A DNA stretch of 64,000 nt from Dehalococcoidia bacterium UBA1141 (GCA_002311385.1 DCAE01000097.1:2403-66402), one strand, 5' to 3'; shown: positions 2,904 through 41,116, counted from the stretch's first letter. The notes: generated from the letters alone by a model not told the origin. Numbers and translations: made by a program.

Positions 2904-5354
2904 TCAATTGCCGCGATAGATTTCGGTGTCGGGATTGAATGCTCCCCAAGCAAACCAGAAGTGATCGCCGTGGGGGATTGGCGTCAGCGCGGACCCAGCC
3001 ATCGGGCCAGCAACCGACTTACCCAATATGTTCCAGGTGGAGCCTGTCTCGTTGTCGATAAAGGCATCGCCTTCGGAGCGGAATGCCAGCTTTTCTCCGT
3101 CGATAATAGCCTCAAATACACCCGACGCCCCAATCTCGTCTGACTCGCCAATGAGGAGCCCGTCCAGAGCAGACTTGGTCCCAAGTTTGAAGAATACCAC
3201 AACATCCGTTCCGCCCACCGAGTAATTCACGACCCTCTCTTGGTTGAGGATGGTGAACGAAAATGCTGCGGAACTATCGCCTATGAGGAAGGCGGACACT
3301 CGTTCTTTGGGTTGTAGTCTGCCGTCCAAATCACGAACGCTGGTATCGAATAGGAAGGGGGGTTGGTCTACGCGGTCATACCCTATGTAAGGGTTTTGAC
3401 CGTAAGGGCGGTCGAATCCCGTTTCCCTTGACAGAACCAATCCATCCGGGCGCACTTCCGCAAAATCAGCGAAGGAGATTATCGAAGCGGGCAGAAACTT
3501 TAAACGGCTGCCAGCTTGTTCCCCCACGATACCTTCGCCAGTAAATTGCTGCCACCAAGTCTCGGTCTGCCTGTCCCACATAATCAGGTCGCTGTTGCGC
3601 AGATTTCCCGACACCCCGAAGTCATGCACAACCCCGTTTAATGTCCTTTCAAAAGCCAAAGCCGAGTTGCAGAGGGGGCAGAACGTTACCAACACCGGTT
3701 CACCCCCGAGGGTGTCGTTCACGATTTCATGCCAGGTCAATATCTGTAGTGGATATGCTTTGGCTTCGCCGTTAATCTCCAAGGAGATAATGGGTTCTAA
3801 ATCCTTTATCCAATCGCCAGCCAAAACCGTCGTGGTGAACTTGGGATCGTCAATAGCCGGGATATTGTCACGGCTGGGGGTTCCCGCTCTGATTTCAGCG
3901 CAAGGCACCGTATGCAGGCTGAAATCGGTTTTCCACACCCGAGGATCAAATTGGGCTCGAGCCAGAGCTTGCTGCCAATCCGGATCGGGTTCAACTACGA
4001 TTTTAACCTTACCGCTAGCTCCACTATCATCACGAGTGGAAGACCCTCCGCGGGTAGACGACCTGGGGCCCGGAGTGCCTTTGGCATACATGACATTACC
4101 TCTGACACCAGGGCTGCTCTTGGCGGCGACATCGGCAAATGTTAGGTGCAAGACACCGTCATTATCGATGCCCATGGACACTTCCTGACCCCACGGATCT
4201 CCCTCGGAAGTGAAAGCTGTATCTATCAGCCATTGACTCCCGTCCCAGACCGCCACTTTGACCACGTCTTCGTCGGAATATGACAGGATGGGGTTATCAT
4301 CGGCGTCCAGTACTACAGGGCTGGTCTTCCTGGCTCCGAGAAATCCCGTGAACACGTTTTCCAGCTTGTCCACCCGTTGGATGTTCCATTGTGAGCCGTC
4401 CCAACGGGCGAGCTTGATATACCCGCTGGTATTGGTTTCAGGCTCGTAATAGCTGATGACAGGGTTGTCCTGGCTATCAATGATCAAAGACGCGTAGCGG
4501 CCCACATCGCCTTCGCTGTCAACCGTGGATACCGTCCAACCTGTCCCGTCATTTATAGCGTACTTCAAATCTGCCTCGCCGCCATCGAACCAAACCACGT
4601 GGGGACGATCTTGTGAATCCACGGCAATGAAACTGCCGAATTCATAGACCACCGGCCCACTGCCCACCTCTTCAACGTTCCAGTTTTGACCATCGAAAGT
4701 AGCGTATTCCACTCCCGACGTGCCGCCAAACTGGGATGGGTCTATGGAAACTACGTGGGGACGACCGGTGGAATCAATGGCTAAATTATTATCCCATCCG
4801 TCGTGACCGGCGTTCTGTATGTTCTCCACCTGCCACCCTCCGTCCACCAACACGGCATAGGCAGCGTCTTCGTTATCGTGATCGTGATAAGAGATTTGCG
4901 GCACGCCATCACTGCCGACTTGGATATCCATTGGCCCATAGAAATAGCCGGTGGAGATTGTAGTGATGTCCCAGGCGTCGCCACTTGGAACGGCGTATTT
5001 CACGAAGCCCGGCATCGCTTCTAGGATATAGGCGATATGGGGCACCCCGTTGGCATCTACCGCCAAAGACGGTTTAGCTCCGTTGGTGTCCAGTGTCTCT
5101 AGCTGCCAGGTATAGCCGGTGACGGTGCCTGTGTCTGCGTCTGAAGGTTCACCTCCGGTCGACGCTTCGGGCGCTTCTTCCGTCGGCGTCGATTCGGAAG
5201 ATGTAATCGTCGTACCAGGGGTATCAGTTGTCGCCGGGACCGAAGAAGGGGTGGACACGGAAGTGGCGGTAGAACTGCCTCCGCATGCGGCGAACAGGAA
5301 TACGCCAGCAATCAGCGCAATTCCCAATATCCAAAAACGTTTTATATTTACCAA
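2904..5354 (-). CDS. Lipoprotein: repeat (beta-propeller-like) N-terminal region fused to a C-terminal DUF3179 domain
   Basis: Signal peptide plus lipobox (IAGVFLFAAC-GG), then a Thr/Ser/Pro linker. About seven ~45-aa repeats follow (NGVPHIAY, DGVPQISY, TGRPHVVS, QDRPHVVW, QDNPVISY, DDNPILSY, DGVLHLTF). The C-terminus DNIPAIDDPKF...LVTFCPLCNSALAFER resembles DUF3179. Confidence 0.75.
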   Translation of the reverse strand: MVNIKRFWILGIALIAGVFLFAACGGSSTATSVSTPSSVPATTDTPGTTITSSESTPTEEAPEASTGGEPSDADTGTVTGYTWQLETLDTNGAKPSLAVDANGVPHIAYILEAMPGFVKYAVPSGDAWDITTISTGYFYGPMDIQVGSDGVPQISYHDHDNEDAAYAVLVDGGWQVENIQNAGHDGWDNNLAIDSTGRPHVVSIDPSQFGGTSGVEYATFDGQNWNVEEVGSGPVVYEFGSFIAVDSQDRPHVVWFDGGEADLKYAINDGTGWTVSTVDSEGDVGRYASLIIDSQDNPVISYYEPETNTSGYIKLARWDGSQWNIQRVDKLENVFTGFLGARKTSPVVLDADDNPILSYSDEDVVKVAVWDGSQWLIDTAFTSEGDPWGQEVSMGIDNDGVLHLTFADVAAKSSPGVRGNVMYAKGTPGPRSSTRGGSSTRDDSGASGKVKIVVEPDPDWQQALARAQFDPRVWKTDFSLHTVPCAEIRAGTPSRDNIPAIDDPKFTTTVLAGDWIKDLEPIISLEINGEAKAYPLQILTWHEIVNDTLGGEPVLVTFCPLCNSALAFERTLNGVVHDFGVSGNLRNSDLIMWDRQTETWWQQFTGEGIVGEQAGSRLKFLPASIISFADFAEVRPDGLVLSRETGFDRPYGQNPYIGYDRVDQPPFLFDTSVRDLDGRLQPKERVSAFLIGDSSAAFSFTILNQERVVNYSVGGTDVVVFFKLGTKSALDGLLIGESDEIGASGVFEAIIDGEKLAFRSEGDAFIDNETGSTWNILGKSVAGPMAGSALTPIPHGDHFWFAWGAFNPDTEIYRGN

Positions 5355-5574: not shown

Positions 5575-6809
5575 CTACGGTGTTGGACGCTCGGCAAGCG
5601 TCAACTCAGTGGTGCCCTTCAGCCCTCTCGGGTAAAAAACAACGGCAATAGTCTCACCGGGAGGGTGCTGCACCAGGAACTTGGACATCTGGCCCGTATT
5701 GGAGATGGGCTCACCACCCAATTCGACTATAACGTCTTCCGGGAGCAGCCCAGCAACGTCCGCAGGCATCCCGGCGCCGATTCGAACAATGACTATTCCC
5801 TCCGACACAGGAACGCCTACTCGGCCGGCCAAGGCCGGTGACAGGTTTATCGGAGATATACCGAGGAATCCTCGGTCTACGTATCCTCGGGCCTTCAGTT
5901 GCTCAACAACAAACTGGGCGTCGCCAATATTGATGGCGAAACCAATGCCCTAGCTGCCTCTAATCACCGCCGTATTAATCCCAATCACCTCCCCCAGGTT
6001 GTTGGACAATGGCCTACCGCTATTACCCGGGTTGATCGATGCGTCGTTCTGAATCAAATCAACCATCGTCGTTTGAGCGTCCACGGCTATCGACCGGCCC
6101 AAGGCGCTTATCACGCCTTTGCTCACCTTAGGCCCGCCCGGCAATCCCAGGGCATGACCGATGGCTATCACCTCTTGGCCCACTTAGAGGTCTGCCGATT
6201 TCCCCAACACCGCCGGTTGCAACCCTTCGGCATCGATCTTAATCACAGCGGTGTCGGTTCCAGCGTCTCCGCCAATCAATTCGGCGGGGAAGGTCTTTCC
6301 GTTGTTAAGCGTGACAGTGATGACTTGAGCATCCCTGATAACGTGATTGTTGGTGAGGATGAAACCCTCTTTGTCCAAAACGACCCCAGTTCCCACGCCC
6401 ATGCTGGGCACCGCTTGGTTAATTGCGCCCATAGCCGCAACTTCGGTCACGATTTGCACCACTGAGGGTTTAAGTTTCTTAACAACTTCGATTGTTGGGA
6501 GGCCACTTGTGGCGAGGCCGCTGACTAAGGGGACGGTGACCGTCGAGATAGACGCTGGGGCGGAATTTTCTATCGGCTCATCGCTCTTTGGCGGCTCGGT
6601 GCTTTCCGGTTGGGCGTTGCTATCCTCTGTAGCGGGAGGTATTGCAGTTTCGGTGGGAGTCGTTTGAGGAGCCACTCGGGTGGAAGTGGCAGACACCGTT
6701 GTATTCGGGGAAATTTCCGTAGCAGGCGTAACACTTTTGCCGCCGCACGCCGAAACGACTAAGACCAGAGCAACGGCACCAAGGGCTGAAATACAGACCG
6801 TCCAAGCAT
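5575..6809 (-). pseudogene. HtrA/DegP-like serine protease (trypsin-like domain + PDZ) interrupted by in-frame TAA and TAG, with an out-of-frame start
   Basis: Track ORFs 6184..6696, 5950..6183 and 5575..5832 are all in one frame. Read-through gives ...LGKSADL*VGQEVIAIGHALGL...NPGNSGRPL...INTAVIRGS*GIGFAINIG...PDZ. A lipobox-type signal (AWTVCISALGAVALVLVVSACGG) is in frame upstream, but the only ATG (6809-6807) is out of frame. Confidence 0.7.
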
Positions 6810-31806: not shown

Positions 31807-32547
31807 TTAGATTACAGCCTTATTCTGATTTACCGTGGACTCGATGGCTTGCTCCCATTCGTCTACGTCCATGAAATGTGGTCCGGCTCCACCGTGATAA
31901 GAAACCTTGCCATCTGCGCCCACCACGTACAACCGCACCGGCGCCGCTCCGTAGGCCTCGTCGATAACGTTGTCCATTTCCTCAATCAAAGTGGGAATGG
32001 ACATTTTCATCTCCAAAGTACAGGTATTGGCCACTTGGTCCCGTTCCTCGAAAGATTGATGTTGCCTGAAGAGAACGGAATCTTCCAAGTTGCTGTCCAC
32101 CTGCCAACCGTCGGTGGGGTGGGCCTCCCGAACGTAAACCAAGAAGAACTCCACTTGGTCCCCGAAGCGGTTATAAATTTCTTCCATGTGCCCCACCTGG
32201 GCGCGGTAGGGGGGTCAAGTGTAACTGCCGAACACCAAGGCCACTGGCTTCTTTCCTCTGAAGCTGGACAATTCAACCTGTTCACCGGTGCCCATCCTCC
32301 GCAGTTTGAAATTGGGCGGAACCTCTCCCTCATTCGGACCCATGTCGTTCCTGCGCATCACCGCGTCAAGCCGTGTCTGAAGCTCTGCGGAGCAGTCGTT
32401 TTTACGCTCCGCCAATATGTCTTGCTTGGATCTTGCGCCGCCGGAGGACTTGGCTTCGGATTTAATCTCTTGCATAATCTGGCCAAAGTCAGCCCTGACG
32501 TCATTGCTCATGGTGCTCATGACTTTGTCTCTCTCGATCTTGTCCAT
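31807..32547 (-). CDS. Iodothyronine deiodinase-like thioredoxin-fold protein with in-frame TGA (predicted selenocysteine) at 32217-32215
   Basis: Track ORFs 32215..32547 and 31807..32196 are in frame with only the TGA between them. Read-through gives KPVALVFGSYT-[TGA]-PPYRAQ...VREAHPTDGWQ, matching the deiodinase active-site FGS.TUPPF and EAHPSDGW motifs. Confidence 0.8.
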
Positions 32548-32611
32548 CCTGCTGGCTCCTATCCAATCGATTTCCGACGCGATTGTCCCCAGTGTTAGCT
32601 AGTAAGTTTGG

Positions 32612-34523: not shown

Positions 34524-34795
34524 AATGGTCTTTGCAGGGGCTCATTAGATGGTTGATGAGAATCCACGTTGCCTGAAATTCCATCTTCCAATTTCAGCGG
34601 AACTGCCGTGCCCCCAGTCGCTTCCATAAGAGAGATAACTTTGGCCAAGTGTTCGTCTCCCAGACCCAGCTTCCCCAAGTAGCTGGTCAAGTCCGACATC
34701 ATCTGGATCTTGGAACTTCCTTCCGGCTCAACGCCGTTCTCAGTGGTCCTATCCGATAGTTCCAATCCCTTTGGCTCTGCAATGATATTACTCAT
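34451..34795 (-). CDS. Hypothetical protein overlapping the regulator start (doubtful)
   Basis: 114-aa ORF in a different frame from the regulator, overlapping it by 73 nt. It has only a weak SD and no motif. It could be a separate small gene or the 5' part of a frameshifted regulator. Confidence 0.3.
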   Translation of the reverse strand: MSNIIAEPKGLELSDRTTENGVEPEGSSKIQMMSDLTSYLGKLGLGDEHLAKVISLMEATGGTAVPLKLEDGISGNVDSHQPSNEPLQRPLWLLKATQTSGLQPRSPIRPNPPE

Positions 34796-34910
34796 TTAGT
34801 ACTTTCCCCATCCCCGTTTCTTGCTCTGTTTTCCCGGTAGGTCGACCCGATTCCGGGCCTTCGTTATGTTCGTCTCGTCGGCTTTGATTATGGTTGCTGC
34901 TCTCTTTGGT

Positions 34911-34985
34911 TAAATCACCCCTCAAGGTGATTTGGCGGGTGATAAATTGCTTAATCATTAGGGATTAGCTCCAAGTAGTGACGAT
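34911..34985. repeat. Copy 1 of a ~75-bp intergenic repeat, containing the 22-bp palindrome AAATCACC-N6-GGTGATTT (34912-34933)
   Basis: It shares AAATCAC...GCGGGTGA...TAGGGATTAGCTCCAA with copy 2 at 35219-35295. Confidence 0.55.
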
Positions 34986-35218
34986 GGAGACGAGTCCGCC
35001 GCTGGCGCTCTTTCCAGCCCAAAATTTTGGTTGGCTAGCCGTATCGGAGCATGGCAACGGGAGTTCAACTCGCTCTTGTCCACATGAACGTCGCCCGTAA
35101 AAGTTTTCCCTTGGTTTGCTGCCACGTACTTGCCTCTGCTCCCATTGCCTTATGAACGATTGGCTGCTCTTTTCTTGTCTGCTAATTGACTTTTAGTATT
35201 GGATTTGACTCGTTCTTT

Positions 35219-35295
35219 GAAATCACTCAACCGAGGGGTTCGACGGGTGAATTTATTGATAGCTCAATAGGATTAGCTCGAATGGAGTAGCTAAC
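35219..35295. repeat. Copy 2 of the ~75-bp intergenic repeat
   Basis: GAAATCAC...GACGGGTGA...ATAGGATTAGCTCGAA, with roughly two-thirds of positions matching copy 1 by eye. It is followed by the perfect hairpin CAATGAGGG-GAAT-CCCTCATTG (35307-35328). Confidence 0.5.
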
Positions 35296-35420
35296 AAAGA
35301 ATGGGCAATGAGGGGAATCCCTCATTGAATTGGGGGATGCCATATTGTCACTGAGGTGTCGGGCCGACAAGGGGATACAGCTGGAAGTTTGCAGGGCAAG
35401 ACGGTTATGAAGTGGAGGGC

Positions 35421-35475
35421 AAAAAAAGATCAGGAACCGACTCTGTGGTCCAGGTCACTGGAGCCGGTTCCTGAT
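35421..35475 (-). terminator. Rho-independent terminator of the 66-aa gene
   Basis: 11-bp stem ATCAGGAACCG (35429-35439) / CGGTTCCTGAT (35465-35475) with further inner pairing. On the minus strand it is followed by CTTTTTTTG. Confidence 0.7.
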
Positions 35476-35524
35476 TAGAGATAAATAGTGCTGATTGGGA
35501 CCAACTAGGGCAAAACCAATCGCA

Positions 35525-35725
35525 TTAGGCGATTGAAAGGGAATTCATCCATCTTTCGGCTTCCGCAAGGCAGAGATTTGCCTTGTCCAAGTCGCCAGAC
35601 TTCAGGTGAGCGCGGGCCGCATCAGCCAGGATTAGCGATAGGCCGGTGCGAAGCGCTTGGTCGTTGCCATTGCTGTATTGACCCTGTCCATCCAGTGGGG
35701 CAATCATGGTGTTTGTTGCTTCCAT
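35525..35725 (-). CDS. Hypothetical 66-aa protein
   Basis: Strong AAGGAGGAAAAATG SD-start context, its own terminator about 50 nt downstream, and an AT-rich putative promoter region upstream. No recognisable motif. Confidence 0.6.
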   Translation of the reverse strand: MEATNTMIAPLDGQGQYSNGNDQALRTGLSLILADAARAHLKSGDLDKANLCLAEAERWMNSLSIA

Positions 35726-36005
35726 TTTTCCTCCTTTTACCTATTTGCTTGGGATTCTGCATAAGATAGGAATAGGAGACACCAACCTGGACCCGGTGTT
35801 TCCTATGTTAAACAAGTCAAATACCGACCAACAAAATTAACCTTTTTACTATTTTTACTATATTTTATGTTAATTTAATTAGATAGCATAACGATTCTGA
35901 AGAAATATCTTCGGTTATTCTCTAGAATATACAAAAATAGCAACGTATATCGTCAAGTAATATTGGTTGATTTATTATACGTATTTGAATTTGCGCTGAA
36001 TTTCT

Positions 36006-36090
36006 CTCTTGGCATGATTGCAGCGATGTACCGATTGAGAGGACTCTGCTGGGGCCGGTAACTTGATTGGCCCTGCACCGATGCCAAGAG
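36006..36090 (+). other. Candidate structured RNA element (10-bp closing stem enclosing two hairpins) upstream of the PEPCK-like gene
   Basis: CTCTTGGCAT (36006-36015) is perfectly complementary to ATGCCAAGAG (36081-36090). Inside it are CAGC...GCTG and GGGCC-N12-GGCCC. A short hairpin plus TTTTTT run follows at about 36107-36124. Strand not established. Confidence 0.3.
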
Positions 36091-36399
36091 TGGATTTCTA
36101 TCCTCCATCAACAGTGGTTTTTTACGTCCTTGTGTCCTGAAAATAGTCCCTCTGATTAGCCAAATTACACGTGAAAACACTTTACTTGGCTTCTGCAACG
36201 ATGTAGCATGTGTTCGGCCACAGCGGCATCAGACTTCCGGGAACATTGCGCACAACATTATCGGATATCAACAAAACCGGCCCAACTCAACTAGTCAAGA
36301 ATCGCTCCTCCTTTAAAGGGTATAAAACCAACACAGTTCAAGGCTTTTTCGGGAGTGGAGAGCAAATCACACTGTGGGAATTACCGCGGAGACAACAAT

Positions 36400-40312: not shown

Positions 40313-41116
40313 ATGGAGACAGTACGCCTGTTGGAAGAGCACGAGTTTCCTCAAGAACTCCAGAAATACTTCGAGGGGACCAAAACCTGGTTCGGCATAG
40401 ACTATCTTCCCAAGATGAGCAAGGTCATCTCCTATGCCCCGGAGTTCGCCAGTACCCACGGGCGTTGCAGCCGCCGGGCGATGGTGGACGGAGACCTGAC
40501 GCGAGCGCAGAAGGAGATGATTGCTGTTGCGGTCAGCGCCGTCAACGCATGTGAATATTGAACCGTAGCTCATACCACAGCCGGGAAGCTTGTGGGTTAT
40601 GGAGACGACGCATACTGGTATGAAGCCGCCTACGTCTATGGTGTTACCAACGGCATAAACGCAGTTGCCGACGGACTGCGACTACCTCTGGAGAATTCGG
40701 ACACACCAGCCAGAAAGCCCCTGATCATGCCCATCGAGTTCGAAGAGGCCTCCGATAGAGTGAAGGACACCTACTCGGACATCATGACCTTTTATCAGTC
40801 CGAGCAAATCCCTGCGATTTTCAAAACCCTGGCCCACGACGATGGATATTTGAAAGATTATTGGGGAGCGGTACGATTCGTGTTCAGCGATGGCAGGTTG
40901 GACCGTTTGACCAAAGAGACTCTCGCCTTTACTGCATCAATGGCGGCCAAGTCGGACTACGGCGTGGACTTTCATTTGACCGAAGCCCGGCGTCTCGGAC
41001 TCAGCGAGAAGGGTGTCATGGAAGCGGTGCAGGTGGTCCAACTATTTAGTTGCTACACCAAGATGGCGGATGGCCTTCAACTCAGCCCTGATTTCGACCC
41101 CATGGGCGTCACTTAG
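40313..41116 (+). CDS. Two-domain AhpD/carboxymuconolactone-decarboxylase-family protein with in-frame TGA (predicted selenocysteine) at 40559-40561
   Basis: Track ORFs 40253..40561 and 40592..41116 are in frame with only the TGA between them. Read-through gives AVSAVNACEY-[TGA]-TVAHT, the AhpD core motif S..N.C.YC...H with the second Cys at the TGA. An AAAGGAGGA SD precedes the ATG 40313. Confidence 0.8.
40571..40601 (+). promoter_or_regulatory. Candidate bacterial SECIS hairpin downstream of the TGA
   Basis: CATA-CCACAG-[CCGGGAAG]-CTTGTGG-(GT)-TATG: about 10 bp of bulged stem starting 10 nt after the TGA. The G-rich apical loop lies about 22 nt from the U of UGA. Confidence 0.45.

Follow-up and report, generated by a model that had tools for sequence, protein, structure and literature searches.

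In the stretch of 64,000 nt from Dehalococcoidia bacterium UBA1141 analyzed here, which is called the window in its full length of 64 kb, the minus-strand region 31807-32547 very probably represents one gene for a soluble selenoprotein of about 27 kDa that belongs to the prokaryotic deiodinase-like family and is encoded in a marine SAR202-type genome (Dehalococcoidia, Chloroflexota). The gene is continuous across a TGA codon and its product is a member of the deiodinase family; in relatives, the TGA is conserved, an RNA stem downstream of it covaries, and selA and selB are linked to the gene. A preliminary description of this region had claimed that two minus-strand open reading frames (ORFs), 32215..32547 and 31807..32196, lie in the same frame and are split only by the TGA at 32217-32215. 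Translation of the window reproduced this exactly: the frame that opens with the ATG at 32547 and closes with the TAA at 31809-31807 contains the TGA as its sole internal stop codon, and the joined product has 246 residues. Read through, it contains KKPVALVFGSYT-TGA-PPYRAQVGHMEEIYNRFGDQVEFFLVYVREAHPTDGWQ, and the wider surroundings of the codon translate as KKPVALVFGSYT-TGA-PPYRAQVGHMEEIY, with VYVREAHPTDGWQ further downstream. The features of the region, all on the minus strand and with RNA positions counted from the U of the UGA as nt 1, are as follows.

31807-32547, minus strand: probable deiodinase-like selenoprotein gene, complete, with ATG at 32547, 246 codons, selenocysteine (Sec) as codon 111 and TAA at 31809-31807; matches to PF00837 and Dio3 (4TR3).

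32556-32560, minus strand: Shine-Dalgarno-like AGGAG, 8 nt 5' of the ATG, read from the sequence.

32215-32217, minus strand: UGA codon 111, probably read as Sec, in the motif FGSYT-U-PPY; TGA in 80/80 loci and TGC in the Cys homologs L103 and L104.

32209-32214, minus strand: run of six C (C6 run) forming two Pro codons directly 3' of the UGA; polymorphic among same-species contigs, the allele with five C (5-C allele) shifting the frame.

32188-32204, minus strand: predicted family-conserved bacterial selenocysteine insertion sequence (SECIS) stem-loop, nt 14-30, GCGCCC-AGGUG-GGGCAC with a C15·A29 mismatch; assigned from covariation and folding energies.

32191-32211, minus strand: hairpin of the preliminary description, nt 7-27; apparently a lineage-specific competing structure and not the conserved SECIS, without covariation and with a loop register unique to the window.

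32189, minus strand: G-to-A variant, found by comparison with same-species contigs, that changes Arg120 (CGC) to His120 (CAC) and breaks pair 15-29 of the conserved stem.

32020-32022, minus strand: Cys176 codon, candidate resolving cysteine; Cys in 76/80 loci and one position off in the other four.

For family searches, the TGA was replaced by Cys in the joined protein. The PF00837 (T4_deiodinase) profile matched with 105.8 bits against a gathering cut-off of 27 (E = 2.8e-30) as a single domain that extends over residues 60-236, thus across the TGA, and covers profile positions 62-234 of 237. Both halves of the protein therefore fell into one PF00837 domain and not into unrelated families. 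The closest solved structures were the catalytic domain of mouse Dio3 (4TR3, E = 4.8e-23) and mouse Dio2 (9H48, E = 2.2e-20). Weaker matches were obtained to AhpC-TSA (PF00578, E = 9.5e-8, 32.5 bits vs. a cut-off of 26) and to Redoxin. The NCBIfam model NF038285 ('deiodinase family protein') was not reached (189 bits vs. a cut-off of 250), the match being limited to the C-terminal half of its 347 positions; this model probably covers longer proteins such as the EF-hand-containing forms seen among the homologs. In these longer homologs of about 400-430 residues (P0026, P0029-P0031, P0034, P0035, and others), N-terminal EF-hand calcium-binding domains are fused to the deiodinase-like domain, and among those inspected P0029 (locus L104) has Cys, encoded by TGC, at the active site.

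The active site proposed in the preliminary description, FGS-x-T-U-PPF with a downstream EAHPSDGW motif, was confirmed in its essentials. The motif FGSYT-U-PPY of the window protein fits FGS-x-T-(U/C)-PPF, with F106, S108, T110, P112, and P113 kept in at least 79 of the 80 loci of relatives described below. The insertion specific for deiodinases is present with its EAHPxDGW edge and, together with the equivalents of His202 and Arg275, is conserved in at least 79 of these loci. The peroxiredoxin signature PxxxTxxC is absent from the protein, as the sequence LVFGSYTU has no Pro at position -7 and Ser instead of Thr at position -3, and the CxxC motif of TlpA/ResA-type oxidoreductases is absent from it as well. 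An AlphaFold model was made for P0001, a Cys homolog 56% identical to the window protein (pLDDT 89.3), and its best matches in the PDB were Dio2 (9H48, target-normalised TM 0.82) and Dio3 (4TR3, 0.75), with ResA/TlpA-type oxidoreductases and the 1-Cys peroxiredoxin AhpE as the next closest. No N-terminal transmembrane anchor was found: residues 1-70 of the window protein are highly charged and without a hydrophobic segment, and residues 1-67 form four soluble helices in the P0001 model. These results support the assignment of the protein to the deiodinase family with its thioredoxin fold and of the catalytic residue encoded by TGA as selenocysteine; the protein is not an animal-type membrane deiodinase.

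To find relatives, one genome per bacterial species was scanned. At least 595 genomes matched, and 80 loci were fetched and examined. These were mostly metagenome-assembled genomes (MAGs) of SAR202/Dehalococcoidia, and the remainder came from deltaproteobacterial/Myxococcales-type, Binatia, Planctomycetota, alpha- and betaproteobacterial, Armatimonadota, Acidobacteriota, Gaiellaceae, and Entotheonella genomes. All 80 loci had TGA at the homologous codon, in frame with the preceding FGSYT and the following PPFR motif. A protein search returned dozens of C-terminal fragments of 126-138 residues together with a few full-length proteins that carry Cys at the site. Among the latter were P0015 and P0001, which reads FGSYTCPPF, and at the DNA level the codon was TGC in the Cys homologs L103 and L104. 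Orthologs thus do not end at this position but continue in frame with either TGA or a Cys codon. One database protein with 'Trp' at the site turned out to have TGA in its DNA, followed by a hairpin with 7/7 pairs. Besides the window, 21 independent contigs of the same species show the TGA, which excludes a misread TGC or TGT. Since TGA terminates 11 of 44 ordinary genes in the window, a genome-wide reassignment of this codon was ruled out.

At the RNA level, the nucleotides following the UGA were compared. In 59 sequences picked by eye for the register nt 14-20/24-30, this stem was 92.4% paired, with changes on both sides in five of the seven pairs and 63 compensatory cells. None of 500 shuffles reached its value, and structures slid by 1-3 nt were only 24-53% paired. 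The loop has 3-5 nt and begins with G (GGU, GGC, GUC, AGGUC). Part of the covariation ties synonymous third positions of Arg and Ala codons to residue changes encoded by the opposite arm (Arg/His, Gly/Glu), and protein constraint alone is an unlikely source of such a pattern. In an unbiased scan of all 83 sequences, the loop of the best hairpin started at nt 20-21 in 48 cases and at nt 24 in 15 cases, the second register having the stem 18-23/29-34 and the loop CGUGC; a loop starting at nt 14 was found in the window alone. The published model of bacterial SECIS elements (bSECIS) requires a loop of 3-9 nt with G in its first two positions, a spacing of 16-37 nt, and a minimum free energy (MFE) of at most -7.5 kcal/mol (PMC13188914). 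With its 7-bp stem, GGU, GGC, or GUC loop, 17-nt spacing, and compensatory changes in five of seven pairs, the family element agrees with this model. On this comparative basis we consider the stem-loop nt 14-30 (32204-32188) to be the SECIS of the family.

This element overlaps the hairpin that the preliminary description had tentatively put forward as SECIS (CCCUACC/GCGCCCA/GGUGGGG, 32211-32191, nt 7-13/21-27). The hairpin itself exists and is the predicted MFE structure, but its proposed function was not upheld: across relatives it was 56% paired, which equals the shuffle mean, it showed zero compensatory changes, and its spacing of 10 nt lies outside the range of 16-37 nt. Its folding energy was no better than that of shuffled sequences (z = 0.07 and 0.85), so that folding of the single sequence was uninformative. 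When the UGA is in the ribosomal A site, approximately nt 4-13 of the mRNA are buried in the channel. Therefore, the 5' arm of this hairpin would be unavailable at decoding, whereas the stem nt 14-30 would be located at the channel entrance. We infer that the hairpin cannot form at the moment of decoding and that only the nt 14-30 element is then available. As a control without SECIS, only two DNAs of Cys homologs were at hand, a sample too small for conclusions, one having no hairpin and the other 6/7 pairs. The latter is L103 (1501-2208), in which the retention of six of the seven stem pairs next to a TGC codon suggests a recent conversion from Sec to Cys.

A direct link to the Sec insertion machinery was found in five alphaproteobacterial genomes. 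In these, selA and then selB directly follow the deiodinase-like gene in the same orientation, separated by 22-34 nt, an apparent operon that joins the selenoprotein gene to the machinery for Sec insertion. The selA products matched TIGR00474 with 592 bits (cut-off 268) and the selB products TIGR00475 with 376 bits (cut-off 242). In addition, the window contains a second gene interrupted by TGA. The loci and this gene are the following.

L052, L055, L059, L066, and L074, Rhodospirillales/Pseudomonadota MAGs: loci with selA-selB downstream of the deiodinase-like gene.

40313-41116, plus strand: AhpD-like gene with two CMD domains, interrupted by the TGA at 40559-40561; probable selenoprotein gene.

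Reading through the TGA of the AhpD-like gene gives EMIAVAVSAVNACEY-U-TVAH (NACEY-U-TVAH), which corresponds to the AhpD core E-x11-C-x-x-C-x3-H in which Sec replaces the second Cys. The read-through protein matches TIGR00778 across the site (E = 4e-16), TIGR01926 was matched as well, and there was a weak match to an AhpD-related '(seleno)protein' model. Following the UGA, a long hairpin is predicted at nt 5-44 (-16.2 kcal/mol, z = -0.97). Four contigs of the same species have the identical TGA, with the gene cut by gene callers into pieces of 82 and 174 residues. Since two TGA-containing genes of known selenoprotein families are located 8 kb apart and the SECIS is maintained across SAR202 genomes, UBA1141 very likely decodes Sec. 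In L049, L063, and L080, too, an AhpD-like CxxU gene is found no more than 3 kb from the deiodinase-like gene. In L049 (Dehalococcoidia chromosome OZ240228.1), where this gene is on the opposite strand, two deiodinase-like genes with TGAs at 3160 and 3929 are arranged in tandem, and their active-site and SECIS regions are nearly identical. A SelA-like neighbor in the Dehalococcoidia locus L014 proved to be a DgaE-family lyase and not SelA, and direct evidence for Sec machinery in Chloroflexota was not obtained from it. Indirect support is provided by a census of 2006 that reported selenoproteins in Chloroflexi genomes (PMC1794560) and by the enrichment of SelA and SelB in genome bins of sponge symbionts from various phyla (PMC5649159).

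With respect to catalysis, the residues F106, S108, T110, U111, P112, P113, R115, Y138, E141, A142, H143, P144, R169, and R205 are kept in at least 79 of the 80 loci, and H163 is His in 41 of them, including the clade of the window protein. The proton relay described for Dio2 consists of Ser127, Thr129, Tyr157, Glu160, His162, and His182 (PMC11592359), and all its equivalents (S108, T110, Y138, E141, H143, and H163) are present in the window protein. R205 corresponds to Arg275 of Dio3, which has been proposed to clamp the carboxylate of the substrate. The following sequence of events can be envisaged. With the ribosome at UGA-111, SelB·GTP·Sec-tRNA(Sec) would bind the small stem-loop with a G-containing apical loop that begins 10 nt 3' of the UGA codon; SelB would insert Sec, and translation would go on into the C-terminal 135 residues. 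Sec111 would then be placed at the N-terminus of helix alpha1 of a thioredoxin/peroxiredoxin-like fold, ringed by S108, T110, Y138, E141, H143, and H163. Its selenolate would attack an electrophilic atom, and the resulting Se-X intermediate might be resolved by Cys176 to a selenenyl-sulfide, from which a thioredoxin-type reductant would recycle the enzyme.

As oxidizing substrate we tentatively favor an aryl halide, meaning that the enzyme would catalyze the reductive dehalogenation of halogenated phenolic compounds. A hydroperoxide is only slightly less probable in our estimate, and the remaining probability falls to other substrates. The aryl halide was preferred over the hydroperoxide because the substrate and proton-relay residues specific for deiodinases are kept while the peroxiredoxin motif is not. 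The gene context gives a weak hint at haloaromatic catabolism. In agreement with the preliminary description, which had placed the gene among catabolic oxidoreductases, Pfam searches identified luciferase-like monooxygenases, Rieske oxygenases, a GMC oxidoreductase, and amidases in the window; the gene is followed by a luciferase-like monooxygenase gene and a gene of the beta-lactamase family. In 12 SAR202 loci, a gene of the dienelactone hydrolase family (YghX) is the nearest called neighbor, and Rieske and luciferase-like genes adjoin both the window gene and the Cys homolog L103, the latter being located 75 nt downstream of a Rieske ring-hydroxylating oxygenase gene and a luciferase-like gene.

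The alternative that survives best concerns function only: the protein could be a selenoprotein that acts as a peroxiredoxin-like peroxidase or a thiol-disulfide oxidoreductase instead of a dehalogenase, which we regard as possible but less than probable. Such a role would be compatible with the AhpC-TSA and Redoxin matches, which are weaker but real, with the ResA/TlpA-type oxidoreductases and AhpE as further structural neighbors of the P0001 model, with a 2-Cys cycle, for which the conserved Cys176 is suited, and with the proximity of AhpD-like CxxU genes (about 8 kb in the window, at most 3 kb in three other loci). A generic redox role was also proposed for the family by Zhang et al. (2005; PMC1088965). 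It is opposed by the lack of PxxxTxxC and by the almost invariant features that distinguish deiodinases from peroxiredoxins, namely the insertion with its EAHPxDGW edge and the His202 and Arg275 equivalents. If the reading as a dehalogenase is extended further, bacterial deiodinase-like selenoproteins including the SAR202 enzyme would be cytoplasmic, cobalamin-independent reductive dehalogenases that remove iodine or bromine from halogenated phenolic compounds, present in marine dissolved organic matter or among sponge metabolites, via a peroxiredoxin-like Sec/Cys176 cycle and pass the products on to the neighboring oxygenases and hydrolases; we consider this extension unlikely. Slippage in the C6 run after the UGA might even turn expression off and on in the deep-sea population.

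Several observations weigh against a functional selenoprotein gene in UBA1141 and against the substrate proposed above. Genes for SelA, SelB, and SelD and a tRNA-Sec were not found in the 64-kb window (Pfam analysis of 40 ORFs, Rfam, ARAGORN), where Rfam and ARAGORN detected only tRNA-Ala, and tRNA-Sec was not found in 20 related loci scanned for tRNAs either. No neighboring gene is conserved across phyla among the 80 loci, and a literature search found no assay of any bacterial member of the family, so that the substrate proposal draws on residue conservation and weak synteny. The predicted SECIS of the window itself is marginal. Of the seven conserved pairs five remain, as a 4-bp core plus the C·A mismatch, and with -7.6 kcal/mol and a spacing of 16 nt the element lies just at the limits of -7.5 kcal/mol and 16 nt. 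The conserved stem has -13.0 kcal/mol in the allele with CGC but -7.6 kcal/mol in the CAC allele of the window, in which the competing non-conserved hairpin has -12.2 kcal/mol. In the predicted ensemble, the conserved stem accounts for 90% in the CGC allele, whereas the competing hairpin accounts for 86% in the CAC allele (P = 0.86 vs. 0.01 for the conserved stem). Finally, part of the relatives of the window gene carry disrupted copies, both within the species and beyond it.

Within the species, the 21 independent metagenome contigs, which are about 99% identical, fall into three haplotypes. Seven contigs have six C and CGC, are in frame, and possess the perfect conserved stem, one of them (L085) with an additional G-to-T exchange at nt 14. 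Three contigs share with the window the combination of six C and CAC, which is also in frame. The remaining 11 contigs have five C and CGC and are frameshifted. At least three single-nucleotide polymorphism (SNP) backgrounds carry the 5-C allele, which therefore arose by recurrent slippage in the C run or was spread by recombination. An assembly error was judged unlikely as its source, given 11 independent assemblies made with different assemblers and the at least three SNP backgrounds. Variation in the C run, as seen in the window and in loci L001 and L083-L102, may serve to switch the gene on and off or may mark the loss of the gene. In the closest other species, the sister species represented by L041 (3001-3740; also seen as L002; 75% identical; Dehalococcoidia chromosome OY761986.2), the frame is disrupted twice: two nucleotides are deleted from the N-terminal extension, and one is inserted into the 3' arm of the SECIS stem. 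The coding sequence is distributed over three frames, with the C-terminal domain still conserved at the protein level, and this copy is probably a recent pseudogene. Some members of the cluster are furthermore substituted at otherwise invariant sites: P0062, P0067, and P0068 have EVHP or EVHL in place of EAHP and IYEAYG in place of IDEAYG, and P0063 is a doubly shifted version in which the catalytic strand is destroyed.

These data suggest that the gene appears to be dispensable or decaying in a part of this SAR202 sub-lineage, although the copy in the window is intact. One may thus ask whether the window copy, though in frame, is poorly expressed or non-functional, that is, a young pseudogene or a dispensable gene in a decaying lineage. 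The 11 frameshifted contigs, the sister species, the substituted and shifted proteins, and the weakening of the conserved stem by the CAC variant all point in this direction. The window also harbors a gene for an HtrA-like protease of the trypsin family at about 5575-6696 (minus strand) with a TAA at 6186-6184 (SADL-TAA-VGQEV) and a TAG at 5952-5950 (IRGS-TAG-GIGFAI), both at normally conserved positions; since its in-frame stops are TAA and TAG, it is probably a pseudogene and does not indicate a code change. We nevertheless consider decay of the window copy improbable. Its frame is intact over 246 codons with every family-invariant catalytic residue present, it has a good ribosome-binding site, and its SECIS passes the published thresholds, if just barely. 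In-frame alleles were moreover more widespread among the recovered sequences than the 5-C allele, with P0055 indexed in 47 collection blocks, of which 22 contigs were read, compared to 17 contigs for the 5-C protein P0059.

Hardly credible, finally, is an explanation without selenocysteine, in which the TGA would be an ordinary stop codon, a sequencing error for TGC or TGT, or a codon reassigned to Trp or Gly: gene callers do split the gene at the TGA in every database record and the 64-kb window lacks Sec machinery, but the codon recurs in the window, the 21 same-species contigs, and 80/80 loci of other species, the protein is conserved on either side of it in one frame, the downstream stem shows compensatory covariation, selA-selB adjoin the gene in five genomes, and TGA terminates 11/44 normal genes of the window.

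The window protein can be compared, as a probable selenoprotein, with the systems known to date. Deiodinase-like selenoproteins were first described in 2005 from the Sargasso Sea, with Sec and Cys forms and a bacterial SECIS (Zhang, Fomenko and Gladyshev; PMC1088965), the GOS (Global Ocean Sampling) survey listed 22 Sec and 21 Cys sequences (PMC2398784), and the family is included in two reviews (PMC9312934; PMC13188914). The window gene shares with this family the PF00837 domain, the in-frame UGA versus Cys, the bacterial SECIS with a small G-bearing loop, the marine origin, and a presumed redox function. It differs from the family in no essential respect, but has a helical N-terminal extension of 70 residues and a SAR202/Dehalococcoidia host, which is not named in those papers; a literature search likewise found no link of deiodinases to Dehalococcoidia/SAR202. 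Whereas the reviews list a 'UxxC' motif for the family, the clade of the window protein has U-P-P-F/Y and a partner Cys 65 residues downstream.

With the animal enzymes Dio1-3, the window protein has in common the FGS-x-T-U-PPF site, the insertion flanked by EAHPxDGW and QH, the proton relay, the Arg275 equivalent, and the thioredoxin/peroxiredoxin-like fold. It differs from them in having no N-terminal membrane anchor, its place being taken by four soluble helices in the P0001 model. The position of Cys168 of Dio3 is occupied by Tyr, and the distal Cys is also different, being C176 in the window protein and C239 in Dio3. Animal deiodinases use a eukaryotic SECIS in the 3' untranslated region, whereas that of the window gene is of the bacterial type and located in the coding region, and thyroid hormones are not an expected substrate of the window protein. 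Compared with the consensus bacterial SECIS (bSECISearch; prototype E. coli fdhF), the window element is likewise a coding-region stem-loop just after the UGA with an upper stem of 6-7 bp, a loop of 3-5 nt starting with G-G/U, and a spacing of 16-17 nt. Its C·A mismatch, its position at the lower limits of spacing, stem length, and energy, and the more stable competing hairpin predicted for it set it apart from this consensus. Peroxiredoxins and TlpA/ResA-type oxidoreductases resemble the window protein in fold, in the location of the nucleophile at the N-terminus of helix alpha1, and in a possible resolving Cys, but they lack the deiodinase-specific insertion, and their PxxxTxxC or CxxC motifs are absent from the window protein.

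Gene callers systematically mis-annotate the deiodinase-like gene: in all database records it is broken at the TGA into a 'hypothetical' protein of 110 residues and a 'T4_deiodinase' fragment of 126-136 residues. At least 595 species-level genomes matched, and SAR202, one of the dominant groups of deep-ocean bacteria, is heavily represented. The family has been known since 2005; what is added here is the SAR202 host, the corrected SECIS position, the selA-selB linkage, the conserved Cys176, and the segregating frameshift and SECIS-weakening alleles. The annotation gains two probable selenoprotein genes, and no new mechanism is revealed. If the family does use selenium for dehalogenation, the marine cycles of selenium and halogens would be connected through it, and the ancestral function of the thyroid-hormone deiodinases would become apparent.

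Elsewhere in the window, the region 34524-36354 comprises 1.8 kb without an ORF of at least 150 residues. In relatives only an ORF of 66 residues is called there, and the G+C content of the region is about 0.50 compared to 0.54 for the window.

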